Positions 1,583 through 28,973 are shown, numbered from the stretch's first letter. The stretch is DNA of 32,000 nt from Paracoccus suum (GCF_003324675.1 NZ_CP030918.1:2490001-2522000), one strand, 5' to 3'. A program made the numbers and translations. Notes: generated from the sequence alone by a model not told the origin.

Positions 1583-2143
1583 TCAGCCGCCCCAGTGGCG
1601 CATCGGGCCGCAGTCCATGTGCACAAAGTTCGAGCGTGAATATTTCCCGACCCCGCCACCCCGGCAGGCCGCCGCGGCCTGGTACATCTGCCCGACCGAC
1701 CGCGATTTCAGCCGCAGGTCCGCGGCCTTGCCGACCATATGCAGCGAGTTGCGTGCGACGCCCGACGACTGCGAGCGCAGCATCGCGTTGGTCTGCGGCG
1801 AGCGGTAGCCCGACAGCATCATGTAGGGCTCATTGGTCTGCAAAAGCCGGTGCGAGGCGGTTGCGATGTCGATCGTGCGCGGGTCGATGCCGACCATCGT
1901 GCCGGTCCGCCAGTCGCGCATGAAGATGTTGATCTCGTTCAGGGCGTCGCGGATGTACTTGCCATCCACCCAGTACACGGTGTCGATGCTCTCGCCCGTG
2001 CGGCCGGAATACATGCTGATGCGCCGGTAGTTGCCGGCACCACGCGAGATTCCGAAGGCGTTCGCCATTACCGGGGCCGCAGCCACGGTCGTCGCCGCAA
2101 AGATACCAAGGATCCCGCGCCGGGAGATGCTGTCCAGAGTCAT
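1583..2143 (-). CDS. mepK: DUF882 / peptidase M15A family protein, YcbK (MepK)-like, with twin-arginine signal
   Basis: Track ORF 1583-2179 begins at a TTG. The ATG at 2143 gives MTLDSISRRGILGIFAATTVAAAPVMANA (Tat-type SRRxxL signal) and 186 aa, the size of E. coli YcbK. The C-terminal ...HMVGKAADLRL...GGGVGKYSRSNFVHMDCGPMRHWGG is the DUF882 zinc-peptidase signature. Confidence 0.85.
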   Translation of the reverse strand: MTLDSISRRGILGIFAATTVAAAPVMANAFGISRGAGNYRRISMYSGRTGESIDTVYWVDGKYIRDALNEINIFMRDWRTGTMVGIDPRTIDIATASHRLLQTNEPYMMLSGYRSPQTNAMLRSQSSGVARNSLHMVGKAADLRLKSRSVGQMYQAAAACRGGGVGKYSRSNFVHMDCGPMRHWGG

Positions 2144-2312
2144 GTTAGATCGCCTGTCCACTGCATTTGTTTTTGCCAACCTTGTGGATGGCCCGCCCCG
2201 TCCTGACCGGGGCTTGCTGACACTATGTCACCAAGACGCGAGCGGTGGAACCTTTTAGTGCCCGTCCGCCGGAGGCCACCGCTCCTATGCGCGTCATTTC
2301 GCGCATCAACCG

Positions 2313-2380: not shown

Positions 2381-4138
2381 ATGCCGCACTCACTGGACGG
2401 GCCGCGGGGCCGCTGCGACTATTCTGCCATGGCCCAGACAGCGCAGATCACCTCCCGGATTTCCCCCTTGCAGCGACTCGCCACCCGAATCGCCCACCGC
2501 TGCAGGCACGCGCTAATGCCGGTTTGGATCGGGCTGGCGCTGCTCGGCGGCACCGGTTGGGCGTCGGCACTCGCCGTCGCGCCGCGGCTGACCTTTTCCC
2601 CGGAGGAGTTGGCCTTGGCCCAAGGCGTCGTGCGCTCGCCGGGTCTCGCGGCATTCTATGGTGCGAACGGTCTGCGTCCGGTGTTCACCGGACCCGAGGC
2701 GCGGGCGCGCCGCGCGGCTCTGCTGGCTGCGGTCGAGACCGCGCCGCAGCACGGACTGCCGGCCTGGCGCTATCATCCCGAGGTCCTGCGCCAACACCTC
2801 GACGACGACCGTACCGACCCGGCGCTCGAGGCGCAGCTGGCGGGGATCTTTGCCCTTTGGGTGCAGGACGTGTCTGCCGGCATTCTCGATCCGCGCAAGC
2901 TGTCCCCGGCCATCAAGCGCGCGGGCGAGGGTGCCAACCTTGCCCCCGTCTTGGCCGAGTTCGCCGCGGCGCCCGATCCAGTGAGCGTGCTGGCGGCAGT
3001 TGAGCCCTCTGCACCGCAATACATGGCGCTGCGCGAGGCACTCGCCCGGGCCCGCGGCGTAAGCGCGCCCGAGGGCACGCCCGAGGCCCCAGCGGCGCCG
3101 GGTGGCGCCGCCTGGCGCGCGGGCGATCGCGACCCCTCGCTGCCTGCCTTGCGCGCCCGCCTTGCCGCGACCGGCTTTGACGCGGGCACGGCAGCCGATC
3201 CGACCGTCTATGACGAAGGCCTCGCCCAGGCCGTCGCCGCATACCAGAAGGCCGTTGGCCTGCCGGACGACGGCATCGCCGGGGCGCGAACGATCGCCCG
3301 CCTGAATGCCCCGCCCAGTGCCGGGCCGCGGGACTTGCTGGTGGCGATGGAGCGTTGGCGTTGGCTGCCCGACGATCTGAACGAGGGCCAGTCGCGCCAC
3401 ATCTGGGTCAATCTGCCGACCTTTACCGCTGCCATTGTCGACCAAGCGGACAAGGTCACCTTCCAGACGCGGGTCGTGATCGGCAAGACTGACGGCGACA
3501 TGCAGACGCCTGAGTTCAGCGACCGCATGGAATTTGTCGTCGCCAACCCACGCTGGAACGTCCCGCGCTCGATCACCGTCAAGGAATACCTGCCAAAGCT
3601 GAAGCAGAACCCGAGTGCGGCCAGTCATCTGGATATCGTCAACGGCGCGGGCAAGGTGATCCCGCGCAGCCAGATCGATTTCGGCCGCTACACGGCGGCA
3701 AACTTTCCCTATCGGATGCGCCAAAAACCCAGCGAGGACAATGCGTTGGGCATCGTGAAGTTCCTGTTCCCCAATCCCTGGAACATTTACCTGCACGACA
3801 CCCCGTCCAAGGGCCTGTTCAGCGCCGGGCGCCGGGCGTTCTCGCATGGTTGCGTGCGGATCGGCGATCCGGTGGACCTTGCCCGTGCGCTGCTCTCCGA
3901 GCAGTCGGCGGACCCCGCCAAGACATTTTCCGCGGCCCTGCGCGGCGGAAACGAGCGGTATCTGACGCTGAAACCTTCGGTGCCCATCCACCTCGTCTAT
4001 TTTACGGTCCTGCCGGACGCGAATGGCATGATGCGGCGCTATCCGGACATCTATGGCCGCGATGCGGCTGTGTGGGCGGGTCTGTCGCGGGCGTTGACCC
4101 CGCCGACGGCGCCCGAGGCAATGGCTTCGAACGACTGA
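2381..4138 (+). CDS. ldtD: L,D-transpeptidase with peptidoglycan-binding domain (YcbB/LdtD-like)
   Basis: PG_binding_1-like segment: LRARLAATGFDAG...VYDEGLAQAVAAYQKAVGLPDDGIAGARTIARLN. YkuD catalytic domain: HIWVNLPTFT...YLHDTPSKGLFSAGRRAFSHGCVRIGDP (HxC active site). Start is uncertain: ATG 2381, 2429 (MAQTAQ...) or 2516 (MPVWIGLALLGG..., directly at the hydrophobic segment). Confidence 0.9.
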   Translation: MPHSLDGPRGRCDYSAMAQTAQITSRISPLQRLATRIAHRCRHALMPVWIGLALLGGTGWASALAVAPRLTFSPEELALAQGVVRSPGLAAFYGANGLRPVFTGPEARARRAALLAAVETAPQHGLPAWRYHPEVLRQHLDDDRTDPALEAQLAGIFALWVQDVSAGILDPRKLSPAIKRAGEGANLAPVLAEFAAAPDPVSVLAAVEPSAPQYMALREALARARGVSAPEGTPEAPAAPGGAAWRAGDRDPSLPALRARLAATGFDAGTAADPTVYDEGLAQAVAAYQKAVGLPDDGIAGARTIARLNAPPSAGPRDLLVAMERWRWLPDDLNEGQSRHIWVNLPTFTAAIVDQADKVTFQTRVVIGKTDGDMQTPEFSDRMEFVVANPRWNVPRSITVKEYLPKLKQNPSAASHLDIVNGAGKVIPRSQIDFGRYTAANFPYRMRQKPSEDNALGIVKFLFPNPWNIYLHDTPSKGLFSAGRRAFSHGCVRIGDPVDLARALLSEQSADPAKTFSAALRGGNERYLTLKPSVPIHLVYFTVLPDANGMMRRYPDIYGRDAAVWAGLSRALTPPTAPEAMASND

Positions 4139-4232
4139 CGCGGGGGATCCCGCGCGGCGGGCGTCGCGCGGTCGGCATCTGGATTTGCCGATGGGTTCAG
4201 GATAAGGCGATGCCCGAAAGGATCGCCCGACA

Positions 4233-5351
4233 ATGTCGATCACCATCTCTGAACTGGCCCATGCGCTCGGCGCCCGATTCTGGGGCGACGGCAGCCTGAT
4301 CGTGACCGGCGCGGCCGAGCCGGCCGAGGCGGGCCCCGGGCGTATCGCATTGGCACTGAACCCAAAATATGCCGCGGCCTTGCAGCCCGGCGCGGCGGCG
4401 ATCATCAGCGAGGGGATGGACCCTCAGGCGCTTGGCCTCTCTGCCGCGATCTTTGCGGCACGCCCACGGTTGGCGATGGCCGGGCTGACGCAGGCGTTTG
4501 ATCCCGGGCCCGACATCGCGCCGGGGATTCACCCCAGCGCCATCATCGACCCTTCCGCGCAGGTCCCCGCGGACGCCGCCATCGGCCCGTTCGCGGTCAT
4601 CGGTCCCGACGTCACCATTGGCCGCGGCGCGCGCATTGCCGCGCATGTCAGCATCGGGCGGCAAACCAATATTGGCGACGGCGCCCTGATCCTCGCCGGC
4701 GCGCGCATCGGTGCGCGGGTCACCGCGGGGGCCGAGTTGATCGTCCAGCCCGGCGCGGTGATCGGCGCCGACGGCTTTTCCTTTGTCACCGAGGTGCCCT
4801 CGGCGGCCGAGGATGCGCGCGCGGCGCTCGGGCAGGGCGCTGTCCGCAGCCCGGAGGCAGCGCGGTGGCACCGGATTCATTCGCTCGGCAGCGTCGTCCT
4901 CGGCGACCGGGTCGAGGTCGGCGCCAACAGCACCATCGACCGCGGCACCATCCGCGCGACCCGCATCGGCGATGGCACCAAGCTCGATAACCTCGTTCAG
5001 GTCGGCCATAACGTCGAGGTCGGACGCGACTGCCTGCTGTGCGGGCAGGTTGGCGTCGCCGGCAGCGCGCGGATCGGCGACCGGGTGATCCTCGGCGGGC
5101 AGTGCGGCGTCAGTGACAATATCTTTGTCGGCAGCGACGTGGTCGCTGGCGGCGCCACCAAAATCTATAGCAACGTGCCCGCCGGGAGGGTCATCCTTGG
5201 CCACCCGGCGATGCGCATCGAATCAGAGATCGAGATCCGCAAGGCCCTGCGCCGGCTGCCGCGCCTGTTCCAGCGCGTCGCGCGGCTGGAAGGCGGCGGC
5301 GCGCAGGTATCAACCGACGAGCAAGACCCCCAGACCGGAGGCGACCGATGA
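4233..5351 (+). CDS. LpxD-family UDP-3-O-acylglucosamine N-acyltransferase paralogue (left-handed beta-helix)
   Basis: LpxD-type N-terminus: MSITISELAHALGARFWGDGSLIVTGAAEPAEAGPGRIALALNPKYAAAL. Followed by hexapeptide repeats and a conserved LDNLVQVGHNVEVG catalytic-His region. AAAGGA RBS about 10 nt upstream of the ATG. The stop overlaps the next gene (ATGA). Confidence 0.85.
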   Translation: MSITISELAHALGARFWGDGSLIVTGAAEPAEAGPGRIALALNPKYAAALQPGAAAIISEGMDPQALGLSAAIFAARPRLAMAGLTQAFDPGPDIAPGIHPSAIIDPSAQVPADAAIGPFAVIGPDVTIGRGARIAAHVSIGRQTNIGDGALILAGARIGARVTAGAELIVQPGAVIGADGFSFVTEVPSAAEDARAALGQGAVRSPEAARWHRIHSLGSVVLGDRVEVGANSTIDRGTIRATRIGDGTKLDNLVQVGHNVEVGRDCLLCGQVGVAGSARIGDRVILGGQCGVSDNIFVGSDVVAGGATKIYSNVPAGRVILGHPAMRIESEIEIRKALRRLPRLFQRVARLEGGGAQVSTDEQDPQTGGDR

Positions 5352-5611
5352 GCCAGACCAGGGACCGCATCATTCAGATCATCGCCGAGCAGGCGATGCT
5401 CGATCCCGGTGAGGTCGACATGGCTATGACGCCGTCCGACCTTGGGATCGACAGTCTGGGACTGGTAGAGGCGATCTTCGCGCTCGAGGAGGCGTTCGAC
5501 ATCACCGTGCCCTTCAACGCCAACGAGCCGGACAAGTCGGATTTTGACATCTCGTCGGTCGGAGCGATCGTAGGTGCGGTCGAGCGGCTCGTCGCCGCCA
5601 AGGGCGCATGA
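5348..5611 (+). CDS. Acyl carrier protein (dedicated, NodF/AcpXL-like size)
   Basis: 87 aa with the phosphopantetheine attachment motif LGIDSLGLVEAIFALEEAF. ATGA overlaps with both neighbours (5348-5351 and 5608-5611). Confidence 0.85.
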   Translation: MSQTRDRIIQIIAEQAMLDPGEVDMAMTPSDLGIDSLGLVEAIFALEEAFDITVPFNANEPDKSDFDISSVGAIVGAVERLVAAKGA

Positions 5612-6936
5612 GCGAGGGCGCGGACGTCGCGGTGGCCGACGCGGAGGGCGCTGCGGCAGGCGCGCCGAAGGCCACCATCAGCCTCGCCGCGCCCACGGTC
5701 GCGCACCATGAGGAGTGTCCCGCCGGGCTGCGCCGCGTCGCGATCACCGGGACGGGCACCATCAATGCGCTGGGCCACGACGTGCCAGCCACCCTCGCCG
5801 CCTTTCGCGAGGGGCGCTGCGGCATCAGCCAGCTGAACTTCCGCGACGTCGACCGGCTGGCGATCCAGATCGGCGCGCAGATCCACGACTGGACTCCCGA
5901 AGCCTATTTCAACCGCCAGCAGATCACCCTCTACGACAAGTTCACCCAGTTCACGCTGCTTGCAGCCAAGCAGGCGGTGGCCGAGGCCGGCCTGACCTTC
6001 GAGGGGCGGATCGGGCTCACCTCGGGCGTGATCCTGGGGACTGCAGGCGGCGGCCTGAACACCTGGGATGAAAACTACCGGGTGGTCTACGAGGAGGGTA
6101 AGAACCGCGTTCACCCCTTTGTCGTGCCCAAGCTGATGAACAACGCCGCCGCCAGCCATGTCAGCATGGAGTTTGGCCTTCGTGGCCCCGCCTTCACGGT
6201 CGCGACCGCCTGCGCCTCCAGCAACCATGCCATGGGATTGGCCTTCCAGATGATCCGCTCGGGCGCGGCGACGGTCATGCTCACCGGTGGGTCGGAGGCG
6301 ATGCTCTGCTTCGGCGGTGTCAAGGCGTGGGAGGGGCTGCGCGTGATGTCCCGCGACGCCTGCCGCCCGTTCAGCGGTAACCGCAACGGCATGGTCCAGG
6401 GCGAGGGCGCCGGGGTCTTTGTGTTCGAGGACTGGGATCACGCCCGCGCCCGCGGCGCGAACATCCTGGCCGAGGTGGTGGGCTTTGCCATGACCGCCGA
6501 TGCGCAGGACATCGTCATGCCTTCGGCCCAGGGTGCCGAGCGCGCCATTGCCGGAGCGATGGAGGATGCCCGCATCAACCCCGAGGCGGTCGGCTATATC
6601 AACGCCCATGGCACGGGCACGGCGGCCAATGACAAGACGGAATGCGCGGCGGTCTCGCACGCCTTCGGTCATCATGCCGACAAGCTGATGATCAGCTCGA
6701 CCAAGGCGATGCATGGCCATGTCATCGGCGGGACCGGCGCGATCGAGCTGTTGGCGTGCATCATGGCGCTGCGCGATGGAATCGTCGCCCCGACCATCGG
6801 CTATGAAGAGCCGGACCCGGAATGTGCGCTGGACGTGGTGCCCAATACCGCCCGCGACGCGCGGGTGGACGTGGTGCTGTCGAACGCCTTTGCCTTTGGC
6901 GGCCTGAACGCGGTCCTGGCCTTGCGCCGGGCTTGA
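5608..6936 (+). CDS. Beta-ketoacyl-ACP synthase, KAS I/II (FabF/FabB/NodE-like)
   Basis: [15 protein letters not shown]; active-site Cys in [14 protein letters not shown]; His-His in [12 protein letters not shown] and [15 protein letters not shown]. If the ATGA-coupled ATG at 5608 is used, an Ala-rich N-terminal extension of about 43 aa precedes the canonical start of the fold. Confidence 0.9.
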
Positions 6937-6998
6937 AGCGCGGCGTTCCCAATGCCGCCACGCTGTGGCATGAGGCGCCAGACGTGAAAGGTGCCGAC

Positions 6999-8255
6999 AT
7001 GCCGCAAGACGCCGCCGAACTGATCCATGACATGGCCCGCGCCGCCCGCGAGGCCGCCCTGCTGCTGGCGAATACCTCGGCCGAGCGCAAGCACGCGGCC
7101 CTGATCTCGGCTGCCGACGCCATGCGCGCGGGCGAGGATGCGATCCTGATAGCCAATGCCGAGGATCTGGTCGCCGCCGAGGCCAAGGGCCTGTCGCCGG
7201 CGATGCTGGACCGGCTGACGCTGGATTCGGGCCGGATCGCCGCCATGTCGGAGGGACTGCGCGCCATCGCCGAACAGCCCGATCCTGTCGGGCGCGTGCT
7301 GGCCGAATGGGATCGGCCGAATGGGCTGCACATCCGCCGCGTCGCGACCCCGATCGGGGCTCTGGGCGTGATCTACGAGAGCCGCCCGAACGTCACCGCC
7401 GACGCCGGCGCCCTCGCGCTGAAGTCGGGTAATGCCGTCATCCTGCGCGGCGGCTCGGAGAGCAGCAATTCCAGCGCGGCGATCCATGCCTGCATGGTGC
7501 AAGGCCTGCGCGCGGCGAACCTGCCGGCGGCGGCGATCCAGCTGGTGCCGACCACGGACCGCGCGGCGGTCGGGGCGATGCTGGCGGCGCAGGGGCTGAT
7601 CGACGTCATCATCCCGCGCGGCGGCAAGAACCTGGTCGCGCGGGTGCAGGCCGAGGCGCGGGTGCCGGTCTTCGCCCACCTCGAGGGAATCTGTCACATC
7701 TATGTCGATGGCGCCGCCGACCCGGACAAGGCTGGCCGCGTGGTCATGAATGCCAAGACCCGCCGCACGGGCGTATGTGGGGCGGCGGAATGCCTGCTGA
7801 TCGATTGGCGCTATTACACCAAGTACGGCCCGGCGCTGATCGAAGCATTGCTTGCGGCGGGGGTAGAGGTCCGGGCCGAGGGCGAACTGGCCAAGGTGCC
7901 CGGCACCACGCGCGCCCGAGCCGATGATTTCGGCCGCGAGTTCCTCGACATGATCATCGCGACCAAGCTGGTCGATGGCGTCGGGGAGGCGATTGAGCAT
8001 ATCCGCCGCCACGGCTCGGGCCACACCGAGGCGATCCTGACCGAGGATGCGGGCACGGCCCAGGCGTTTTTTGATGGCCTCGACAGTGCCATCCTGATGC
8101 ACAACGCCTCGACCCAGTTCGCCGATGGCGGCGAGTTCGGCATGGGGGCAGAGATCGGCATCGCCACAGGCAAGCTGCACGCCCGCGGTCCGGTCGGTGC
8201 CGAGCAACTGACGAGCTTCAAGTATCTGGTCATTGGCGATGGCACGGTGAGGTAA
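6999..8255 (+). CDS. proA: Gamma-glutamyl phosphate reductase
   Basis: Track ORF starts at 6822. The ATG at 6999 (GAAAGG RBS upstream) gives 418 aa: [35 protein letters not shown]...[36 protein letters not shown]...CGAAECLLI...HGSGHTEAI. Typical ProA. Confidence 0.95.
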
Positions 8256-8289: not shown

Positions 8290-8634
8290 TCACTCGATGA
8301 CCGGCTCGCCGGTGGTGCCGTTGATCTCGACGGTCGTCTTGCGGCCGCCGGTTCCGAGATATTCGATGTTCCAGGTTCCGTCGCCGCTATCCCATTCGAT
8401 GTCGTCAAACCGCAGGAAACCAGGCTCGCCCTCAATCCCCGACAGAATCTCGGTCAGCTTCTTGCCTTCGGCGGGTGCCTCGGTTGTCGGCTTGTCCGTG
8501 CTCGCGCTCGGCGCGGCCTCGGTGCTCGCGGCGGGCGGTGCTGCGGGTGCATCAGTCGCTGGCGCGGTCTGGGCAAAGGCGGGACCCGCGAGCATTACGG
8601 CGGCAACGGCAGGGATCAGGACAAGACGATACAT
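8290..8634 (-). CDS. Secreted PepSY-domain protein
   Basis: Signal peptide MYRLVLIPAVAAVMLAGPAFAQ, a Pro/Ala/Thr-rich linker, then a PepSY-like C-terminus LTEILSGIEGEPGFLRFDDIEWDSGDGTWNIEYLG...VEINGTTGEPV. GGGAG RBS upstream. Confidence 0.75.
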   Translation of the reverse strand: MYRLVLIPAVAAVMLAGPAFAQTAPATDAPAAPPAASTEAAPSASTDKPTTEAPAEGKKLTEILSGIEGEPGFLRFDDIEWDSGDGTWNIEYLGTGGRKTTVEINGTTGEPVIE

Positions 8635-8774: not shown

Positions 8775-9500
8775 ATGATCCGCATTGGCGTCGGCGGCTG
8801 GAATTTTCCCGAATGGCGCGGTGGCGCCTTTTACCCGGACGGCCTGCGCCAGGCGGACGAGTTGGCCCATATGGCCAGCCGGCTGAACGCGGTCGAGGTG
8901 AACGGGACCTTCTACCGCAGCCAGTCGCCCCAAACCTATCGCGCCTGGGCGGATGCCACGCCAAAGGATTTCAGCTTCGCGCTCAAGGCCCCGCGCTATG
9001 CCACCAATCGCAAGGTGCTGGCCGAGGCCGGGGAAAGCGTCACGCGCTTCACCGAGGGGGGCCTGGCTGAGCTGGGGGACAAGCTGGGTCCGATCAACTG
9101 GCAGCTCGCCCCGACCAAGAAGTTCGAGCGTGACGATTTCGCGCGGTTTCTCGACCTGCTGCCGCAGACTGGTGGCGGGCTGCCGCTGCGCCACGCGGTC
9201 GAGGTCCGGCACGAGAGCTTCCTCGACCCCGCTTTCGCGCCGCTCTGCACCGAGCGGGGGGTGGCCATCATCCTCGACGGGGATAGCACCTATCCGTCGA
9301 TTGACAGCCCGACCGCGGATTTCGCCTACCTGCGGATCATGGGCACGACCGCGGGCGAGGCGCTGGGCTATTCCGAAGCAGCGCTCGACCGCTGGGCCCA
9401 ATACGCGCGCGGGCTGCAAGGGGATGTCTGGATGTTCGTCATCGCCGGCGAAAAGCGGCTGAACCCGCGTGCGGCCGAGGCGCTTAGCGCAAGAATTTAG
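8775..9500 (+). CDS. DUF72 (YecE-like) family protein
   Basis: MIRIGVGGWNFPEWRGGAFYP...LNAVEVNGTFYRSQSPQTYRAWADATPKDFSFALKAPRYATN...: characteristic DUF72 pattern. GGGGGAG RBS upstream. Confidence 0.85.
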   Translation: MIRIGVGGWNFPEWRGGAFYPDGLRQADELAHMASRLNAVEVNGTFYRSQSPQTYRAWADATPKDFSFALKAPRYATNRKVLAEAGESVTRFTEGGLAELGDKLGPINWQLAPTKKFERDDFARFLDLLPQTGGGLPLRHAVEVRHESFLDPAFAPLCTERGVAIILDGDSTYPSIDSPTADFAYLRIMGTTAGEALGYSEAALDRWAQYARGLQGDVWMFVIAGEKRLNPRAAEALSARI

Positions 9501-9934
9501 GCGCGGGGTGCGTCCACGGCTTTCCGGTCGTCGACTTCTCCGGCCGCTGCCGACCACTCGCCGGCGCCGGCGCCGGTGTCCGTGCCGAGGGCGACGGTCG
9601 CCCAGTCGGCGCCGGTGGCGGTTGGCGGCAACTCGCTCCGCGGGGTCGCGCGGTGAATGACGCTCTTGGCGATGAACTGGCAACTGATCGGCGCGGTCAG
9701 CAGCAGGAAGAGGGTGATCAGCAGTTCGTGCCCCCAGGCATCGCCCATGCGGCCGAAGTAGATCATCGAGGCGATCAGCACGCCGCCGACCCCTAGCGTG
9801 GTCGCCTTTGTGGGGGCGTGCAGGCGGGTCATCGTGCTCGGCAGCCGGATCAGCCCCCAGCTGCCGACCAGCCCGAAGATGCCGCCGATCACCAGCAGCG
9901 CGGCAATCAGCAGGTCGGTCAGCCCGGCGATCAT
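9497..9934 (-). CDS. mrpG: Mrp/Pha monovalent cation/H+ antiporter subunit G
   Basis: Real start ATG 9934 (the track ORF extends to 10270 in shadow). MIAGLTDLLIAALLVIGGIFGLVGSWGLIRLPSTMTRLHAPTKATTLG...LLLTAPISCQFIAKS. ATGA overlap with mrpF. The C-terminal tail of about 45 aa is low-complexity Ala/Gly/Thr-rich. Confidence 0.85.
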   Translation of the reverse strand: MIAGLTDLLIAALLVIGGIFGLVGSWGLIRLPSTMTRLHAPTKATTLGVGGVLIASMIYFGRMGDAWGHELLITLFLLLTAPISCQFIAKSVIHRATPRSELPPTATGADWATVALGTDTGAGAGEWSAAAGEVDDRKAVDAPRA

Positions 9935-10212
9935 TCGATCAGATCCCCGCGCAGCATGAAGCGCGAATAGGCGACCGTGCCGACAAAGCCGGTCATGGCG
10001 AACAGCAGCGCGATCTCGAACAGCACGCCGCGGCCGGAGGCGATGCCGGCAAGGACGATCAGCGCGATGGCGTTGACGGTCATGGTGTCGAGCGCCAGTA
10101 CCCTGTCGGGGACGCCCTCGGCACGCATGATACGCCAGGCGTTGAACACGAGGCCGAGGCTGAAGCTGGCAGTGGCGAAATACAGCGCGGCATTGAGCAG
10201 GCCTTGGGTCAT
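9931..10212 (-). CDS. mrpF: Mrp/Pha antiporter subunit F
   Basis: Start ATG 10212, 93 aa: MTQGLLNAALYFATASFSLGLVFNAWRIMRAEGVPDRVLALDTMTVNAIALIVL... ATGA overlaps at both ends. Confidence 0.85.
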   Translation of the reverse strand: MTQGLLNAALYFATASFSLGLVFNAWRIMRAEGVPDRVLALDTMTVNAIALIVLAGIASGRGVLFEIALLFAMTGFVGTVAYSRFMLRGDLIE

Positions 10213-10697
10213 TGCATAAACTCCAGCAGGCGGGCTTCGTAGCGGTTGATGATGTCGTCCCGCACGGCATCGGGGTCCGGCGCGTGCAGGCAGTGGACCA
10301 GCAGGCTGCGTCCGTCGGCCGCCAGGTCGGCGGTCAGAGTGCCGGGGGTCATCGTGATCGTCCCCGACAGGATGATGATCGCTTCGGGGTTGGTCAGGCG
10401 CAACGGCACGGTTACCCAAGCGGGGCGCAGATCGCGCACCGGCATGAACAGCACGATTCGCGCGACCACAACGTTGGCGACGCAGATGTCCCAGAGCACC
10501 AGCATGGCATAGCTCGCAGCGCGGGGCAGGCTGCGGATGCTGAGGCTCTCGGGCCAGAACGGGGCCACGGCGAGGGGGATGATAGCGCCGAGGATGGCGC
10601 CAAAAACGAGCGAGTTGACCGACAGGCTGCCGGCGAGCGCGCACCAGGTTGCGAGGACCAGCAGGCTGAGGCCCGGGTTGGGCAGCCAGCGCCTCAT
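10209..10697 (-). CDS. mrpE: Mrp/Pha antiporter subunit E
   Basis: Start ATG 10697, 162 aa: MRRWLPNPGLSLLVLATWCALAGSLSVNSLVFGAILG...ITMTPGTLTADL. ATGA overlaps at both ends. Confidence 0.85.
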   Translation of the reverse strand: MRRWLPNPGLSLLVLATWCALAGSLSVNSLVFGAILGAIIPLAVAPFWPESLSIRSLPRAASYAMLVLWDICVANVVVARIVLFMPVRDLRPAWVTVPLRLTNPEAIIILSGTITMTPGTLTADLAADGRSLLVHCLHAPDPDAVRDDIINRYEARLLEFMQ

Positions 10698-12160
10698 GAC
10701 AGCACCGCACGGGTCAGGGCGGCCGGGGCGTGCAGCGCCGCCGCTGCTCCGTCCAGCCAGGGCTGGATCACGCCGGCGGCCAGCGTCCAAACCGTCAGTG
10801 CCGCGATCAGCAGGCCGATGGCGACAAAGCCCAGCGGTTGCGCGGGATGTGCGGGCGCCTCGGACGAGTCAGTGGCCCAGAAAATGGTGCTACCGGCGCG
10901 AGCAAAGCCCATGATCGCCAGCAGCGAGGTCGCGAGAATCAGCAGCCACAGGCCCCACTGGTCGGGCAGGGCCTGCAGGATCAGTAGCTTGCCGATGAAG
11001 CCCGACAAGGGCGGCATACCGGCCATGGCGACGGCCGCGGCCATGGTCATCGCTGCCAGAAGGCCGCCCTGCGCCAGCCGCCCCGCCGGGACCAGCCGTA
11101 GCGTCCCGCGGCGCGCCACGATCATGTCGCCCAGCAGGAACAGCACTGCGCCCGCGAGGGTCGAATGGACCAGATAATAGAGGCTGGCGGCGGTTGCCTC
11201 GGGGCGGCCGGCGCTGACGGCCAGAAGCAAAGTGCCGATGGAACCGATCACCGACCAGGTCACCACACGGCCGAAATCGCGCGCCCCGAACAGCCCGACC
11301 ATGCCGGTGATCAGAGTCAGCCCGGCGGCGATCCGCAGCCCCTCGGCCAGCATCGCACCGATGGCGCTGTCGAACGGAAACATCAGCGTCAGGCTGCGCA
11401 GCATGGCGTAGACGCCGACCTTGGTCATGATGGCAAACAGGGCTGCCACTGGGCCCGGTGCATTCTCGTAAGTGGCGGGCAGCCAGAAATGCAGCGGCAC
11501 GACCGCCGCCTTGACGGCAAAGACCAACATCAGCATCACCGCGCCCGCGCGGATCAGCCCGTCATGGGGAACCTCCGCCGCCTTCAACCCGATGTCGGCC
11601 ATGTTGAGCGTCCCGGTCACAGCGTAGACCGTGCCGAGCGCGAACAGGAACAGGGCAGAGCCGGCGAGGTTCACGACCACATACTGCACGCCCGCCTTGA
11701 CCCGCGCAGCGCCGCCGCCATGGACCATCAGGCCGTAGGATGCGATCAGCATCACCTCGAAGAAGACGAACAGGTTGAAGGCGTCGCCCGTAACGAAGGC
11801 GCCGTTCAGTCCCATCATCTGGAACATCAGCAGCGAGTGGAAATGCGCCCCGCGCTTGTCCCAGCCGGTGCCGACAGCATAAAGCGCGACGGCCAGCCCC
11901 AGCAGCGCGTTCAGCGCCAGCAACATCGCGGCCAGCCGGTCGATCTGCAGCACGATGCCGAACGGGGCGGGCCAGTCACCCAGGCGATAGACCAGCGGCG
12001 GTGGCTGCATCAACAGCAGCACGGCGACCGTGCCGAGTAGGATCATCGTCGCGATGGAGAATGTGCGCTTGCCCGGCAGATCGGCACGCATCGCCAGCAG
12101 CATCAGGGCACCGGAGACGGCCGGCAGCACGATCGGGACGACAGGCAGGTGCTGGATCAT
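10694..12160 (-). CDS. mrpD: Mrp/Pha antiporter subunit D (NuoN/ND2-like)
   Basis: Start ATG 12160, 488 aa: MIQHLPVVPIVLPAVSGALMLLA...FNLFVFFEVMLIASYGLM...PLHFWLPATYENAPGPVAALFA. ATGA overlaps with mrpC and mrpE. Confidence 0.9.
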   Translation of the reverse strand: MIQHLPVVPIVLPAVSGALMLLAMRADLPGKRTFSIATMILLGTVAVLLLMQPPPLVYRLGDWPAPFGIVLQIDRLAAMLLALNALLGLAVALYAVGTGWDKRGAHFHSLLMFQMMGLNGAFVTGDAFNLFVFFEVMLIASYGLMVHGGGAARVKAGVQYVVVNLAGSALFLFALGTVYAVTGTLNMADIGLKAAEVPHDGLIRAGAVMLMLVFAVKAAVVPLHFWLPATYENAPGPVAALFAIMTKVGVYAMLRSLTLMFPFDSAIGAMLAEGLRIAAGLTLITGMVGLFGARDFGRVVTWSVIGSIGTLLLAVSAGRPEATAASLYYLVHSTLAGAVLFLLGDMIVARRGTLRLVPAGRLAQGGLLAAMTMAAAVAMAGMPPLSGFIGKLLILQALPDQWGLWLLILATSLLAIMGFARAGSTIFWATDSSEAPAHPAQPLGFVAIGLLIAALTVWTLAAGVIQPWLDGAAAALHAPAALTRAVLS

Positions 12161-12531
12161 GCGCGCCCCTCGGGCTGGGGGGCTTCTGCGGCGGGTTCCG
12201 CCTCGTCCAGATCGACGCGATCGCTGCCCGATTGGAACCAAGCGCCAAGCGACATCATCACGACCACTGCGGTCATGCCAAAGCTGATGACGATGGCCGT
12301 CAGCACCAGCGCCTGCGGCAGCGGGTCGGTCATCGGGCCGGGGCCGGCCACCTTGCCTTCGAGCAGGGGCGGCGCACCGACGACCAGCCCGCCCGTCGCG
12401 AACAGAAACACGTTCACTGCATAGCTGAGCATGGTCATGCCAAGGATCACCGGAAACACCCGGCGGCGCAGGACCAAGTAGACGGCGACTGCAGTGAACC
12501 AGCCAATGGCGGTGGCGAGCAGGATTTCCAT
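12157..12531 (-). CDS. mrpC: Mrp/Pha antiporter subunit C (NuoK-like)
   Basis: 124 aa: MEILLATAIGWFTAVAVYLVLRRRVFPVILGMTMLSYAVNVFLFATGG...PLPQALVLTAIVISFGMTA. Confidence 0.9.
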   Translation of the reverse strand: MEILLATAIGWFTAVAVYLVLRRRVFPVILGMTMLSYAVNVFLFATGGLVVGAPPLLEGKVAGPGPMTDPLPQALVLTAIVISFGMTAVVVMMSLGAWFQSGSDRVDLDEAEPAAEAPQPEGRA

Positions 12532-12534
12532 GGC

Positions 12535-15321
12535 CTAAACCTCCGGCTCGTCACTGCGGGCGGCAACGCCCAGGCGCGACAGCGAGGCGAGGGCCAGCAT
12601 GACCGCGCCCAGAACGGTCACGAAGACACCCAGATCGAACAGGGCGGCCGTCGCCAGTTCGATAGGCTCGAACCCCGGCAAGGTGACGTAGCCGAAGGCC
12701 GAGGTCATGAAGGGCTTGCCGTTCGCCCAGGCGCCGATGCCGGTCGCGGCGGCAATCGCCACGCCGGCGCCGATCAGCGTGTGATAGGGAATCCGCACGC
12801 GCTCCTGCGCCCAGCCAAAGCCCGAAGCCATGTATTGCATGACGAGGCCGATGGAGACGACGAGGCCCGCGACAAAGCCGCCGCCCGGCGCGTTGTGGCC
12901 GCGCAGGAAGATGAACATCGCGACGACCAGCGCCAGCGGCAGCATCAGGCGCGATCCGACGATCATCATCAGCGGGTGGCGATCCCCGGCGCGCAACTGG
13001 TCGGCGCTTGCGGCAATCACCTGGCGGATATGGGCGCGTCCCAGCAGCGATTGCGCCAGCGCATAGATCACGAGGGCGGCGATGCCGAGGACGGTGATCT
13101 CGCCAAAGGTGTCATAGCCGCGGAAATCGACCAGGATCACGTTGACGATGTTGTGCCCGCCGCCGCCCAGATAGCTGTTCTGCGCGTGAAACTCCGAGAT
13201 CGTGGGAAAGGCGAAATCGCGCCGCATCAGCGCGTAGATGAGTGCGGTCATGCCAAGGCCCGCAGCCCCGGCCAGCACCATGTCGGCACGCCGCCGCGGC
13301 CCGCTGTCCTCGACGGGGTCGGTGTTGGGCAAGAAGTTCAACGCCAGCAGCATCAGAACGATCGTCACGACCTCGACCGAGATTTGGGTCAGGGCGAGGT
13401 CGGGCGCAGACAGCCAGGCAAAACCCAGCGAGACCATCAGCCCGACGATGCCGATCATGACCAGCGCCAACAGGCGATCGCGGTGCAGGGCAGCCAAGGC
13501 GGCGGTTGCCAGCATCGCGAGGCCCCAGCCGATCAGCGCCGCCGGTGCCACCGGGGTCAGCGCACGCACCTGTGGGCCGAGGCCCGAGCCGGCGAGCGCC
13601 GCCGCCAGCGTCAGCGCCAGAGCCAGCCCGACGAGCACTGCCAGTGCGCGGGCCATGCTGCCATTCTGCAGCGCCTCGCCGAAGCGGGCTGCCGCGCCCT
13701 CGGCCGCAGGGATGACACGCCAGAACAGGCGCTCGGCATCGGGGACCGGCAACGGGCCGCGCGGGACCGGGCCGCCGATCACCGCCAGCAGCGCGAAGGC
13801 CCCCAGCAGGGCAATCGCCGAGAGGGCCAGCGCCGGGGTCAGTCCGTGCCAGACGGCCAGATGCACGTGCACCGGGCTGTCGGTGACTGCGCCGGCCGCC
13901 AGATCGACCGCGGGCGCGGCCAGCATCGGCTGCAGGCCGACCGCGACCGCGCCGATGACCAGCAGCGCCGGCGCCAACCAAAGACCGACCCCCGGCGCAT
14001 GGGCGTGCGCCGCCCCGTCCGAGCGGGGCCGACCGAGGAAGGTGCCCCAGACAAAGCGGAAGCTGTAGGCCGCCGACAGCAGCGCCGCGACCAGCGCCAG
14101 CACCGTAAAGACAGGCCCGCGCGCCATCACGGCCTCGAGCATCAACTCTTTCGACAGGAACCCGCCCAGCAGCGGCACACCCGCCATGGACAGGGAGGCA
14201 AGCAAGGCCAGCACGAAGGTCAGCGGCATGATCCGCCAAAGGCCGCCCAGCCGGCGCAAATCGCGGGTGTGGGCGGCGTGATCGACGATGCCGGCGATCA
14301 TGAACAGCGGCGCCTTGAACAGGGCGTGGTTTAGGATATGCAGCATTGCCGCCTCGGCCGCCGGCTGGGTGCCAAGGCCCAGCAGCATGGTGATGAGGCC
14401 GAGGTGGCTGACCGTGGACCAGGCGAGCAGACCCTTGAGGTCGGTCTCGCCCAGCGCGAATGCGGCGCCGGCCACCATGGTGATCAGCCCGACGACCGGC
14501 ACGATGGCTTGCCATTCAGGCATGGGCGCGAACACCGGCCACAGGCGCGCCATCAGGAACAGCCCGGCTTTGACCATTGTGGCGCTGTGCAGATAGGCGC
14601 TGACCGGGGTAGGGGCGGCCATCGCGCGCGGCAGCCAGAAATGGAACGGCACCTGCGCCGACTTGGCAAAGGCGCCGGTCAGGATCAGCAGCATGGCCGG
14701 GAGCCGCAGGGACGAGGCCATGACCAGATCGCGCGCGGCGAGGATGCCGGTGATCTGGTAGCTGCCGGCGATGCGCCCGAGGATCAGCATGCCCGCGATC
14801 ATCGCAAGGCCCCCCGCGGCGGTGACCGCCAGCGCCATCCGTGCCCCGCGCCGCGCCTGCTGGTCGTGCCCCCAGTAGCCGATCAGCAGGAAGGACGAGA
14901 GTGACGTCAGTTCCCAGAAAATCAACAAAAGCAGTATGTTGTCCGACAGGACGAGGCCCGTCATCGCGCCCTGAAAAAGCAGCAGGAAGGTAAAGAACCG
15001 TCCCGCCCCGTCCTCGCGCGACAGGTAGAACCGGGCGTAAAGGGTGATTAGCAGCCCGATCCCGAGGATCATGATCGCGAAGAACGCCGACAGCCCGTCG
15101 AGGCGAAAGCTCGCCTCCAGCCCGATCTGCGGCAGCCACGCAACATGTTGCAGAATCACCTCGCCGCGCATCAGGGCGGGCAGATGCAGCATGACGCCGA
15201 GCATGGCGAGGCCGGTCGGCAGGGCCGTGGCCCAAGTCGCGGCATCACGCCCTGACCGCACCATCAGTCCCGGAAAAAGGGCCCCGAGGAACGGAAGAAG
15301 CGCGATCAGCAACGGCTGCAT
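12535..15321 (-). CDS. mrpA: Fused Mrp/Pha antiporter subunits A+B (NuoL-like, group-2 PhaAB type)
   Basis: Track ORF 12535-15603 reads through a tRNA gene. The real start, ATG 15321, gives 928 aa: MQPLLIALLPFLGALFPGLMVRSG...WELTSLSSFLLIGYW...VSAYLHSATMVKAGLFL... The MrpB-like C-terminal half follows (...LTQISVEVVTIVLMLLAL...). Confidence 0.9.
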   Translation of the reverse strand: MQPLLIALLPFLGALFPGLMVRSGRDAATWATALPTGLAMLGVMLHLPALMRGEVILQHVAWLPQIGLEASFRLDGLSAFFAIMILGIGLLITLYARFYLSREDGAGRFFTFLLLFQGAMTGLVLSDNILLLLIFWELTSLSSFLLIGYWGHDQQARRGARMALAVTAAGGLAMIAGMLILGRIAGSYQITGILAARDLVMASSLRLPAMLLILTGAFAKSAQVPFHFWLPRAMAAPTPVSAYLHSATMVKAGLFLMARLWPVFAPMPEWQAIVPVVGLITMVAGAAFALGETDLKGLLAWSTVSHLGLITMLLGLGTQPAAEAAMLHILNHALFKAPLFMIAGIVDHAAHTRDLRRLGGLWRIMPLTFVLALLASLSMAGVPLLGGFLSKELMLEAVMARGPVFTVLALVAALLSAAYSFRFVWGTFLGRPRSDGAAHAHAPGVGLWLAPALLVIGAVAVGLQPMLAAPAVDLAAGAVTDSPVHVHLAVWHGLTPALALSAIALLGAFALLAVIGGPVPRGPLPVPDAERLFWRVIPAAEGAAARFGEALQNGSMARALAVLVGLALALTLAAALAGSGLGPQVRALTPVAPAALIGWGLAMLATAALAALHRDRLLALVMIGIVGLMVSLGFAWLSAPDLALTQISVEVVTIVLMLLALNFLPNTDPVEDSGPRRRADMVLAGAAGLGMTALIYALMRRDFAFPTISEFHAQNSYLGGGGHNIVNVILVDFRGYDTFGEITVLGIAALVIYALAQSLLGRAHIRQVIAASADQLRAGDRHPLMMIVGSRLMLPLALVVAMFIFLRGHNAPGGGFVAGLVVSIGLVMQYMASGFGWAQERVRIPYHTLIGAGVAIAAATGIGAWANGKPFMTSAFGYVTLPGFEPIELATAALFDLGVFVTVLGAVMLALASLSRLGVAARSDEPEV

Positions 15322-15442
15322 GTGTCGGTTCGCCCCCCACGGCATTTGACCCGGCGGCCCTATCTGAAGGGCGCGCGCCCGTTTGTGAACCCCAAACCGG
15401 CGCGATGAGTCAGCGGGATCAACGGGAAACGTGGGTGCGGGA

Positions 15443-15518
15443 TGGTGGGCGGTGAGGGACTCGAACCCCCGACATCCTCGGTGTAAACGAGGCGCTCTAC
15501 CAACTGAGCTAACCGCCC
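15443..15518 (-). tRNA. tRNA-Val (anticodon TAC), CCA encoded
   Basis: Reverse complement: GGGCGGT TA GCTC AGTTGGTA GAGC G CCTCG TTTACAC CGAGG ATGTC GGGGG TTCGAGT CCCTC ACCGCCC A CCA. 76 nt cloverleaf. Confidence 0.95.
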
Positions 15519-15526
15519 GCCGGGGC

Positions 15527-15555
15527 CTTATGCGGTGCGGCGAGCCGCAGGGCAA
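15527..15555 (-). promoter_or_regulatory. Candidate sigma-70-type promoter of tRNA-Val(TAC)
   Basis: Minus strand: TTGCCC-N17-CATAAG, with the -10 ending 8 nt before the mature tRNA 5' end. The same architecture occurs at the other stable-RNA genes in the window. Confidence 0.35.
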
Positions 15556-15663
15556 GCGGGGGAACGACGTCGCGTCATACAGCCCGGGTGATGCGCTGCG
15601 CACGCCGGTTGACAGGTGGGGCAGGGCGGACGACCCTCGCCGACCAATTGGCCGGAGGCACCA

Positions 15664-23480: not shown

Positions 23481-23708
23481 ATGACCAGCGCCATCACCGT
23501 TTATTCCACCCCCGCCTGCGTTCAGTGCACCGCGACGACCAAGGCGCTCAGCGCCCGGGGGTTGGACTACCAGATCGTCGATCTGACGGCCGACGGCGAG
23601 GCGATGTCGATGGTCGCCGGTTTGGGGTATCGTCAGGCACCTGTTGTGGTCGCGGGCGAATCGCATTGGTCGGGCTTTCGCCCCGACCTGATCGGCGCGC
23701 TCGGCTAG
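23481..23708 (+). CDS. nrdH: Glutaredoxin-like protein NrdH
   Basis: 75 aa: MTSAITVYSTPACVQCTATTKALSARGLDY..., with a CVQC redox motif and a WSGFRPD motif. AAGAGGA RBS. Confidence 0.95.
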   Translation: MTSAITVYSTPACVQCTATTKALSARGLDYQIVDLTADGEAMSMVAGLGYRQAPVVVAGESHWSGFRPDLIGALG

Positions 23709-23723
23709 GTCCGGGAGGGGCGC

Positions 23724-24112
23724 ATGGCCGGGGTCTGGTATTTCTCGTCGCGCAGTGGCAACACCCGGCGCTTCGTCGAGGCACTGGGCATGCCAGCGCA
23801 CCGGATTGGCCGCGAGGGCGCCGACACCCCGGATGGCCCGTATGTGCTGATCTGCCCGACCTATGGCGATGGCGAGGGGAGGGGCGCGGTGCCTAAGCCC
23901 GTGATCCAGTTCCTGAACGATCCGCAGAACCGCATCCGGCTTGCCGGCGTAATCGGCGCGGGCAACCGCAGTTTTGGCAGCAGCTTCGCGCAGGCCGCCG
24001 ATGTGATCGCCGAAAAATGCAAGGTGCCGCTGCTCTACAAGTTCGAGCTGGCTGGCACCGAAACCGACCTTGCCCGCGTTGATGCGGGACTGAAGCGCCT
24101 TTGGGGGAATGA

Positions 24113-24131
<19 letters not shown>
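23724..24131 (+). CDS. nrdI: Class Ib ribonucleotide reductase flavodoxin-like protein NrdI
   Basis: 135 aa: [18 protein letters not shown]...[13 protein letters not shown]...VPKPVIQFL...[14 protein letters not shown]. Confidence 0.95.
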
Positions 24132-27730
<3,599 letters not shown>

Positions 27731-27731
<1 letters not shown>

Positions 27732-28078
27732 CAGACGGCGGCGGTGACGATGACCTCGACCTTGTAGTCGGGGGTCGCCAGCTTGGCCTCGCCGGTGGCG
27801 CGGGCAGGGGCGCTGCCGCGCGGGACCCACGCATCCCAGACTGCGTTCATGGCGGCGAAATCGGCCATGTCGGCCAGCCAGATCTGCGCGCTGAGGATGC
27901 GGCTCTTGTCGGTGCCGACCTGCGCCAGCAGCGCCTCGACCCGGTCGAGGCAATCCTGCGTCTGGCCCGAGATGTCCTTGGTCGGCTCGCCGACCTGGCC
28001 GGCCAGATAGGCAACGCCGTTATGCACGACCGCCATGCTCATCCGGGCGCTCGTCTCGAATCGTTTGATATCGCTCAT
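27731..28078 (-). CDS. RidA/YjgF/TdcF (endoribonuclease L-PSP) family protein
   Basis: The ATG at 28078 (AAGGA RBS; the track GTG at 28093 lies in the RBS) gives 115 aa: MSDIKRFETSARMSMAVVHNGVAYLAGQVG...QTQDCLDRVEALLAQVGTDKSRILSAQIWLADMADFAAMNAVW...PARATGEAKLATPDYKVEVIVTA. Confidence 0.9.
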
Positions 28079-28089
28079 CTTGTTTTCCT

Positions 28090-28839
28090 TCACAGAAACA
28101 GTCTTCTAAAGAACAGGGTCGTCATGCCGAAGCCGATCACGGCAATCAACCCGCGCAGTACCGAACGCGGCAGGCGGCGCGCGACAGGTGCCCCCAGATA
28201 GCCGCCCGCGGTGTTGCCGGCCATCATGACCAGCGCCGGCACCCAGACGATCTTGCCGCCCACCGTAAAGATGACCGCCGAAATCACCGACAGCGCAAAG
28301 CTGAGCCAGGTTTTCAGCCCGTTCATCTCGTGCAGGTCGCGCATGCCCCACAGCGCGAACAGCGCCAGCAGCACGATGCCAAGGCCACCGTTGAAATAGC
28401 CGCCGTAGATGGCGACCGGCAACAGCGTGCCCGCGCCAAAGGCGGTGACGCCGCGGCTGTGGCGGGCTGCGTAATCGCGCACCTGCTCGCCGAACATGAA
28501 CACCAGCGTCGCGACCAGCAGCAGGAACGGCACGAGAATCCGGAACGCGGCATTGGACGAAACCAACAGCAGACCAGATCCGATGGCGCTGCCAAGCAGG
28601 GTCCACAGGGTCAGCCGCACCAGCAGACGGCGGTCAAACCTCTGCACCTCGCGGCGAAAGCCGAGGGCGCCGGCCAGGTAGCCGGGCAGGGCCGACAGGG
28701 TCGCCGTGGCATTGGCCGAAACCTCGGGGATGCCGTAAAGCACCAGGGCCGGGAAAGTGACGAAGGTGCCGCCACCGGCGACCGTGTTCATCATCCCGCC
28801 GACGAAACCTGCAACGAACAGCAAGATGAATTCTGTCAT
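28090..28839 (-). CDS. TauE/SafE (DUF81) family anion/sulfite exporter membrane protein
   Basis: The ATG at 28839 gives 249 aa: MTEFILLFVAGFVGGMMNTVAGGGTFVTFPALVLYGIP...AIYGGYFNGGLGIVLLALF... Multi-TM with the internal duplication typical of TauE. Confidence 0.85.
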   Translation of the reverse strand: MTEFILLFVAGFVGGMMNTVAGGGTFVTFPALVLYGIPEVSANATATLSALPGYLAGALGFRREVQRFDRRLLVRLTLWTLLGSAIGSGLLLVSSNAAFRILVPFLLLVATLVFMFGEQVRDYAARHSRGVTAFGAGTLLPVAIYGGYFNGGLGIVLLALFALWGMRDLHEMNGLKTWLSFALSVISAVIFTVGGKIVWVPALVMMAGNTAGGYLGAPVARRLPRSVLRGLIAVIGFGMTTLFFRRLFL

Positions 28840-28973
28840 ATCCCCGCCCCCCGTAGCGCCGACGGATATGAGCCGCGGGCCGCTGGGATAACAAGCCTCG
28901 GCCCCCACACCTTGCGGCGGCGTGGTCCGGGGGGCACAGTCCAGTAGGCATGCGCCGGGACGGAGGGATGGTC

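Follow-up and report, generated by a model that had tools for sequence, protein, structure and literature searches.

Dedicated acyl carrier proteins (ACPs) paired with their own beta-ketoacyl-ACP synthases (KASs) are known from the NodF/NodE system of rhizobia and the AcpXL cluster of Rhizobiales. Here we describe a three-gene locus of Paracoccus suum in which a private ACP gene and a KAS gene follow lpxD, the gene for UDP-3-O-acylglucosamine N-acyltransferase. The locus lies in a stretch of 32,000 nucleotides (NZ_CP030918.1:2490001-2522000), referred to as the window, and positions are counted from its first letter. Like this trio, NodF/NodE comprises a small dedicated ACP encoded beside a FabF-like condensing enzyme, and its product is amide-linked to a glucosamine nitrogen. 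It differs in its transferase, which is NodA and not a left-handed beta-helix LpxD, in its acceptor, a chito-oligosaccharide, and in elongating its chain over several rounds, with housekeeping enzymes reducing and dehydrating it; its genes are carried on symbiosis plasmids, whereas the trio belongs to the core genome. The AcpXL cluster (acpXL-fabZXL-fabF2XL-fabF1XL-adhA2XL-lpxXL), which makes 27-hydroxy-C28, resembles the trio in that a lipid A acyltransferase is joined by an ACP and KAS of its own, and in being accessory to viability. However, it includes a dehydratase and a dehydrogenase and uses a late LpxL-family transferase for a secondary O-linked chain, whereas the trio has one KAS and the primary N-acyltransferase LpxD only. 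The window and 20+ orthologous loci contained no fabZXL, second KAS, adhA2XL or LpxXL gene.

Two further comparisons concern LpxD itself. The canonical gene of E. coli and most sampled phyla lies in the order bamA-skp-lpxD-fabZ-lpxA-lpxB, is essential, and encodes an enzyme of the same family as the trio LpxD, sharing its catalytic His, its Asp and its oxyanion Gly. In contrast, the trio gene is relocated, its product has 22-27 aa inserted after GFSF as well as G184S and Q197S, and the ACP and KAS genes come next. Francisella, with its temperature-regulated paralogues LpxD1 and LpxD2, also uses LpxD to vary the N-acyl chain, and the trio may share the tie to temperature, the R. sphaeroides ACP gene being listed in the RpoHI regulon (see below); there, two LpxDs reportedly draw on a common ACP, whereas the trio has one LpxD with possibly two donors. 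The trio follows the logic of NodF/NodE and AcpXL; it differs in its partner, the primary N-acyltransferase of the Raetz pathway, in encoding a single condensation step, and in being a core-genome locus throughout an order.

Amide-linked 3-oxotetradecanoate was recognised in the lipid A of Rhodobacter and Paracoccus as early as the 1980s, and the TLR4 antagonists E5531 and Eritoran copy it as part of their pharmacophore. A 3-oxo lipid A of the same type is reported for Paracoccus denitrificans and for Thiobacillus (now Paracoccus) versutus, and the keto chain is said to occupy both nitrogens in R. capsulatus and one in R. sphaeroides. The private ACP and KAS described here may make 3-oxo-C14-ACP for transfer by LpxD, which would explain the amide-linked 3-oxo-14:0; on the gene content and published data assembled below, we place this at a little short of an even chance. 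The lipid A of R. sphaeroides and R. capsulatus contains 3-oxo fatty acids (PMC5923411), as the title of Qureshi et al. 1991 also indicates. Among the gammaproteobacteria, Spiribacter and Ectothiorhodospira have lipid A with 3-oxo-14:0 (PMC5923411).

The trio consists of three open reading frames (ORFs) on the plus strand, chained by two four-nucleotide overlaps:

4233..5351, + strand: lpxD, UDP-3-O-acylglucosamine N-acyltransferase, 372 aa (Pfam, NCBIfam and PDB matches, residue alignment)
5348..5351, + strand: ATGA overlap of the lpxD stop TGA and the ACP start ATG (direct reading cgATGAgc)
5348..5611, + strand: private acyl carrier protein, 87 aa (PF00550, Ser36)
5608..5611, + strand: ATGA overlap of the ACP stop and the KAS start (direct reading gcATGAgc)
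5608..6936, + strand: FabF-like beta-ketoacyl-ACP synthase paralogue (KAS), 442 aa (PF00109 and PF02801)

The GC content at the third codon position was 0.83-0.87 in these ORFs (window GC roughly 67%), indicating that they are real genes.

The first product contains the domains PF04613 (33.7 bits, cut-off 30.8) and Hexapep (84 bits), and passes the NCBIfam equivalog TIGR01853 (277.2 bits, cut-off 242.5) as well as NF002060 (308.4 versus 207). It is the P. suum protein P0001 (100% identity). The nearest solved structures in a PDB search were the LpxDs of Chlamydia, Pseudomonas and E. coli, and the alignment with Chlamydia LpxD 2iu8 spanned residues 4-353. The motif KLDNLVQVGHNV (aa 250-261) aligned to E. 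coli D232/Q236/H239; Asp252, Gln256, His259 and the oxyanion Gly of the window enzyme correspond to E. coli D232, Q236, H239 and G257, and the catalytic His259 is encoded at nt 5007-5009.

The window LpxD is of an insertion type, with about 20 extra residues past GFSFVT at about aa 187-212 (nt 4794-4868 for aa 188-212). This subfamily combines 22-27 extra residues after GFSF with G184S, Q197S, F41L and K194R (E. coli numbering). It is a wider alphaproteobacterial subfamily, widespread among the nearest relatives (representatives P0235-P0384) with or without ACP-KAS. The insertion lengthens a loop beside F183, a residue that lines the acyl-chain pockets in E. coli LpxD. LpxDs of both clades that carry the trio differ from canonical LpxD at G184S, Q197S, F41L, K194R and R315E and by the insertion; this set was rejected as evidence for a keto donor, being common to insertion-type LpxDs without ACP-KAS. 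A change at the Gln236 position was also rejected as a keto-donor signature: the residue is Gln256 in the window LpxD, His in most Rhodobacterales orthologues, and Gln, His or Met among canonical LpxDs, varying whether or not the trio is present. At the C-terminal residues by which LpxD docks its ACP (R293, N310, R314), the alignment was too unreliable to serve as evidence.

The second product matched PF00550 (36 bits, cut-off 20.8), with the phosphopantetheine site at Ser36 in GIDSLG (nt 5444-5461). A family signature, VPFNAN (nt 5507-5524), lies inside a roughly 9-residue insertion relative to AcpP. Both the serine, in a DSL or SSL motif, and VPFNAN were kept in 25/25 orthologues. The protein fell under all NCBIfam ACP cut-offs (TIGR00517, for example, 42.4 versus 70.45) and was 34% identical to E. 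coli AcpP. With the TIGR00517 cut-off failed and the 9-residue insertion present, its sequence marks it as distinct from the housekeeping AcpP. The closest non-orthologues in a plasmid collection showed about 35-38% identity, NodF/HsnA among them at 35%.

The third product carries both ketoacyl-synthase domains, PF00109 (145.7 bits) and PF02801 (112.2 bits). Its catalytic set is Cys202, His334, Lys366 and His371, with a gate Phe in AFAFGG, and these catalytic residues and the Phe were conserved in 23/23 orthologues. The best PDB match was T. thermophilus FabF (351 bits), and identity to E. coli FabF was 39%. The protein passed the subfamily model NF005589 (425 versus 387) and missed the FabF equivalog TIGR03150 (444.5 versus 493.75). 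An Ala-rich N-terminal extension of ~40 aa (5608-5727) is specific to P. suum and lacking in the orthologues (402-423 aa); the only in-frame alternative start seen upstream of the conserved core was a GTG at codon 9. Neither the ACP nor the KAS reached a NodF- or NodE-specific family threshold, and the NodE family was absent in the 25 of 33 KAS matches listed. No nod genes were found near the trio, and it was not assigned to NodF/NodE.

A preliminary description, made from the DNA alone, had reported a three-gene operon chained by ATGA overlaps: an LpxD-type N-acyltransferase with an intact catalytic-His region, an 87-aa ACP with a DSL site, and a Cys-His-His KAS I/II. The family matches, residues and direct readings given above bear out each of these elements. 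It had also placed lpxD outside its usual bamA-lpxD-fabZ-lpxA context, with no accompanying FabG, FabZ or FabI, and this too held over the 32 kb: Pfam and NCBIfam scans of the window found no FabG, FabZ, FabI, bamA or lpxA gene. The only related gene in the window is a split NMO/FabK-family gene 22 kb from the trio.

By definition, the product of one KAS turn is a 3-oxoacyl-ACP, two carbons longer than the primer and bound to the carrier that brought the malonate. With only a KAS and a carrier, and no ketoreductase, dehydratase or enoyl reductase, a 3-oxoacyl product is predicted for the trio. In the proposed route, FabD would load malonate onto the private ACP, and the KAS would be primed with a C12 acyl chain by the housekeeping fatty acid synthase, one decarboxylative condensation giving 3-oxotetradecanoyl on the private ACP. 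LpxD, encoded on the same mRNA, would then transfer the 3-oxo-C14 chain to the 2-amino group of UDP-3-O-acyl-glucosamine, yielding amide-linked 3-oxo-14:0. Partial reduction by FabG, or use of 3-hydroxy-C14-AcpP by LpxD, would give mixed 3-oxo and 3-hydroxy chains, and without ACP-KAS, LpxD would still use the ordinary 3-hydroxy donor.

The essentiality of these genes was taken from supplementary transposon insertion sequencing (Tn-seq) tables for R. sphaeroides 2.4.1 (PMC5513736). In that genome two hypotheticals (RSP_2773, RSP_2774) precede LpxD (RSP_2775), 'AcpP' (RSP_2776), a 3-oxoacyl-ACP synthase (RSP_2777) and IalB (RSP_2778), and a separate fabG-acpP-fabF set is held at RSP_2461/2463/2464 (PMC5513736). 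RSP_2773 and RSP_2774 match, in size, the MepK-type endopeptidase and L,D-transpeptidase upstream of the P. suum trio, and the synteny of RSP_2773-2778 is as in R. capsulatus and Rhodovulum. The insertion counts were as follows (all PMC5513736):

RSP_2775, LpxD, 1092 bp: 0 insertion sites in every condition
RSP_2776, private ACP, 267 bp: 9 insertion sites
RSP_2777, KAS, 1209 bp: 36.5 insertion sites
RSP_2461 and RSP_2464, housekeeping fabG and fabF, 738 and 1263 bp: 0 insertion sites

Insertion densities in RSP_2776 and RSP_2777 resembled those of neighbouring non-essential genes, indicating that the ACP and KAS are accessory. The KAS is therefore not the housekeeping FabF: it fails the TIGR03150 cut-off, and its R. 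sphaeroides orthologue is non-essential whereas fabF RSP_2464 is essential. An essential lpxD combined with a dispensable ACP and KAS fits an optional donor, or a decoration on an essential step, and a mixed 3-oxo/3-hydroxy pattern.

The preliminary description had called the first gene an LpxD paralogue, which would be a specialised enzyme beside a canonical lpxD next to fabZ-lpxA elsewhere in the genome. The position of lpxD outside the usual cluster agrees with this idea, and the window LpxD passes its equivalog cut-off, which argues against it. In R. sphaeroides, RSP_2775 was the only gene annotated as a glucosamine N-acyltransferase, and 'hydroxymyristoyl' occurred in the annotation of RSP_2775 and LpxC (RSP_2115) only. 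The canonical R. sphaeroides cluster comprises BamA (RSP_2711), an outer membrane protein (RSP_6204; skp), FabZ, LpxA, RSP_2715 (lpxI) and LpxB, with no lpxD. Similarly, the fabZ-lpxA-lpxI-lpxB cluster of P. ferrooxidans has no lpxD, and no bamA ahead of it. On the 1.46-Mb replicon of that species, lpxA gave a weak cross-hit and the one other LpxD-like match was the trio LpxD; the trio there is annotated as LpxD, acyl carrier protein and ketoacyl-ACP synthase. A second canonical lpxD beside fabZ/lpxA was thus found neither in the R. sphaeroides cluster nor on the P. ferrooxidans replicon, and the paralogue label is contradicted; we consider a specialised second LpxD very improbable. Since RSP_2775 is the sole annotated lpxD and took no insertions, and since the canonical clusters lack lpxD, we take the trio LpxD of these relatives to be their sole housekeeping enzyme, moved out of a bamA-skp-(lpxD)-fabZ-lpxA cluster; for P. 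suum, orthology and synteny point to the same relocation. The preliminary description had allowed that an only lpxD in the genome would simply be the housekeeping gene. That removes the paralogue idea, but the coupling of ACP and KAS to lpxD stays unexplained by it.

The preliminary description had proposed to compare the spread of the trio with that of 3-oxo lipid A. Both R. capsulatus and R. sphaeroides, species reported to have it, carry the trio, which counts in favour of a keto donor; the match, however, is essentially that of one lineage and one evolutionary event. Other observations weigh against a keto donor. In the NodF/NodE system, acyl-NodF intermediates are reportedly reduced and dehydrated, evidently by housekeeping enzymes, so a private ACP need not shield a 3-oxo group from FabG. 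No active-site position was specific to trio-linked LpxDs in an alignment with trio-less relatives. The window LpxD also retains Asp252, as expected of a 3-hydroxyacyl enzyme; among the residue roles described for E. coli LpxD, its equivalent D232 accepts a hydrogen bond from the beta-hydroxyl (PMC6286764).

Retention of this Asp, and of mostly Gln or His at the Gln236 position, both beta-hydroxyl binders in E. coli, would suit an alternative in which the ACP and KAS are a dedicated saturated C14 supply. FabG acting in trans would then give (R)-3-hydroxy-C14-ACP for LpxD, the module would set chain length and saturation where the C18:1 unsaturated branch dominates fatty acid synthesis, and the 3-oxo chain would be a leak or come from elsewhere. 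The action of housekeeping reductases on the private ACP NodF, as noted above, and the dispensability of the ACP and KAS in Tn-seq are compatible with such a supply, but ordinary synthesis already gives 3-OH-C14-AcpP and most bacteria need no such module. The N-linked chains of R. sphaeroides lipid A do include 3-OH-14:0 (PMC7956469), a further point in its favour. It leaves the 3-oxo chain, which gene content predicts exactly, unexplained, and we judge both the supply role and its effect on chain length and saturation to be unlikely.

Conservation of the trio was followed in a scan of species-representative genomes with an LpxD alignment, which gave 80 loci, a sample and not a census, and then by local tblastn. 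Context look-up located the trio in P. zhejiangensis, Frigidibacter, R. capsulatus and Rhodovulum marinum. In the plasmid collection, replicons of P. versutus and P. pantotrophus gave matches to the trio LpxD and ACP. An ACP gene followed lpxD in all 18 Rhodobacterales-type loci sampled (among them Sulfitobacter, Roseovarius, Loktanella, Aliiroseovarius, Actibacterium, Halocynthiibacter, Pseudorhodobacter and Neomegalonema), and 15 of the 18 had the full LpxD-ACP-KAS trio. Contig ends account for 1-2 of the remainder, and one metagenome-assembled genome (MAG) had no KAS. The trio occurred in 0 of about 58 sampled loci from other phyla, which showed the classical BamA-LpxD-FabZ-LpxA order (canonical contexts among L113-L168).

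A locus labelled Bdellovibrionales (L105) led to a second clade with the trio, a large uncultured alphaproteobacterial group. The L105 LpxD, ACP and KAS were 42, 45 and 41% identical to the window proteins (tblastn; clade range 41-45%). In this clade (L105, L169-L172) the order LpxD-ACP-KAS is unchanged, and the flanks are GGDEF-EAL upstream and MlaC or EamA with BipA downstream. Its ACP has SSL in place of DSL and keeps PFNAN. Close relatives (L107, L108), with BipA kept, lack ACP-KAS, and such LpxDs fall inside or beside the clade in a rough tree, which indicates that ACP-KAS behaves as a cassette gained or lost beside lpxD. Presence in 15/18 Rhodobacterales-type loci and recurrence in the second clade show that the adjacency is not due to chance, and the same order among different neighbours argues for functional coupling. 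That ACP-KAS moves as a cassette along with lpxD speaks well for joint action of all three genes. Another relocated lpxD context was seen among alphaproteobacterial MAGs: in an Azospirillaceae MAG (L103:1820-4635) and a related one (L106:5111-8011), lpxD follows an ABC-2 transporter pair (ATPase and permease), not bamA-skp, and has no ACP-KAS.

This pattern bears on the possibility that the ACP and KAS are redundant acpP/fabF paralogues with no specific product, their arrangement being a relic of neutral rearrangement. They are dispensable in Tn-seq, and the KAS still scores within the FabF subfamily. However, the catalytic residues and the ACP serine are kept in all 23-25 orthologues, in one order and again in the second clade, and the ACP has its own conserved VPFNAN signature. 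Orthologue identities of 55-84% indicate purifying selection on the ACP and KAS, which also counts against redundancy, and we hold this explanation to be distinctly improbable.

The ACP and KAS could instead serve a different envelope lipid, for example by building a secondary chain of lipid A or the chain of an aminolipid or of another N-acylated sugar, the adjacency to lpxD reflecting co-regulation only. Besides the non-essentiality of both genes and the lack of a trio-specific signature in LpxD, two observations agree with this: the R. sphaeroides ACP gene alone of the trio is listed in the RpoHI regulon (PMC3441632), and the KAS-less MAG retains LpxD-ACP. Yet the same trio order is found in two clades with unrelated flanks, LpxD is the sole acyltransferase in the unit, and no second transferase is conserved near the trio. 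The junctions also point to co-translation. The 4-nt ACP/KAS overlap recurs in P. zhejiangensis, Frigidibacter, R. capsulatus and Rhodovulum marinum, and the lpxD-ACP junction, overlapping in P. suum, is a 7-47 nt gap rather than an overlap in orthologous loci. A different lipid product is, on this evidence, about as unlikely as the saturated C14 supply.

The MAG without KAS (L162:6998-10026), alphaproteobacterial and with Rhodobacterales-type flanks, has the order MepK-Ldt-LpxD-ACP, with HerA immediately next and neither KAS nor IalB. In this assembly LpxD and Ldt are each split into two tblastn segments. The RpoHI assignment of RSP_2776 comes from Table 1 of the RpoHI-specific heat-shock regulon, defined by expression profiling and chromatin immunoprecipitation on microarrays (PMC3441632). 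This hints at a stress-inducible promoter within or just past lpxD and at temperature control of donor supply.

The genes flanking the trio in the window are:

2381..4138, + strand: L,D-transpeptidase with Scaffold, PG_binding_1 and YkuD domains (Pfam, NCBIfam)
1583..2179, - strand: MepK-type peptidoglycan L,D-endopeptidase, divergent from the transpeptidase gene (NF053624, 206 bits versus a cut-off of 185)
about 6999-8255: proA, after a 62-nt gap behind the KAS gene (NF001221, 550 bits)

The transpeptidase gene is syntenic upstream of lpxD at most Rhodobacterales loci and absent in the second trio clade; it is counted as a conserved Rhodobacterales neighbour and not as a shown member of the module. 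The MepK gene is conserved as a neighbour in Rhodobacterales only. A sphingolipid or AcpR-type ACP and an aryl-polyene or LuxC-type reductase context were considered and set aside; the downstream 'aldehyde dehydrogenase' is the proA product. Scans for sigma-70 promoters and terminators across 3900-7300 gave nothing useful.

Elsewhere in the window, the nitronate monooxygenase/FabK-family gene is split across two frames, 28950-29423 and 29504-30064 (Pfam NMO profile positions 9-125 and 160-330), by a frameshift or as a pseudogene. A RidA-TauE/SafE pair (27731-28908, - strand) lies beside the nrd operon in P. suum and follows lpxB in P. ferrooxidans (L007), so the region around the lpx genes has undergone rearrangement among Paracoccus species. 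The nrd operon itself, for a class Ib ribonucleotide reductase (glutaredoxin-like NrdH, NrdI, NrdE and NrdF; 23481-27225), and a multisubunit Mrp-type Na+/H+ antiporter operon (9497-15603, - strand) are ordinary. At 8290-8634 (- strand), flanked by proA and a DUF72 gene, lies the gene for a small Ala/Pro-rich, apparently secreted protein, whose PepSY_2 match (17.6 bits) is below threshold.

Full-text literature searches, which took in lipid A reviews and a review of lipid A regulation, found no assignment or functional study of a trio gene and no route to the keto group. It is quite possible, though on balance somewhat less than probable, that Rhodobacterales and the second, uncultured clade share a previously undescribed route to 3-oxoacyl lipid A, in which the KAS would feed a NodF-like ACP and this a single LpxD, beside 3-hydroxyacyl-AcpP and maybe with tuning by RpoHI.

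For annotation, the lpxD of Rhodobacterales is to be sought outside bamA-fabZ-lpxA, and its neighbours labelled 'AcpP' and 'FabF' are distinct from the housekeeping genes. If the ACP-KAS pair is the keto source, these would be the missing genes for the lipid A keto group behind the E5531/Eritoran template. The question of the keto group would then be testable with viable knock-outs, since the ACP and KAS are dispensable in Tn-seq. A small three-gene cassette would also become available for engineering weakly agonistic or antagonistic lipid A in other bacteria. It would also mean that diversity in the primary N-acyl chain of lipid A can come from a second, private donor to LpxD, and not from a second LpxD.

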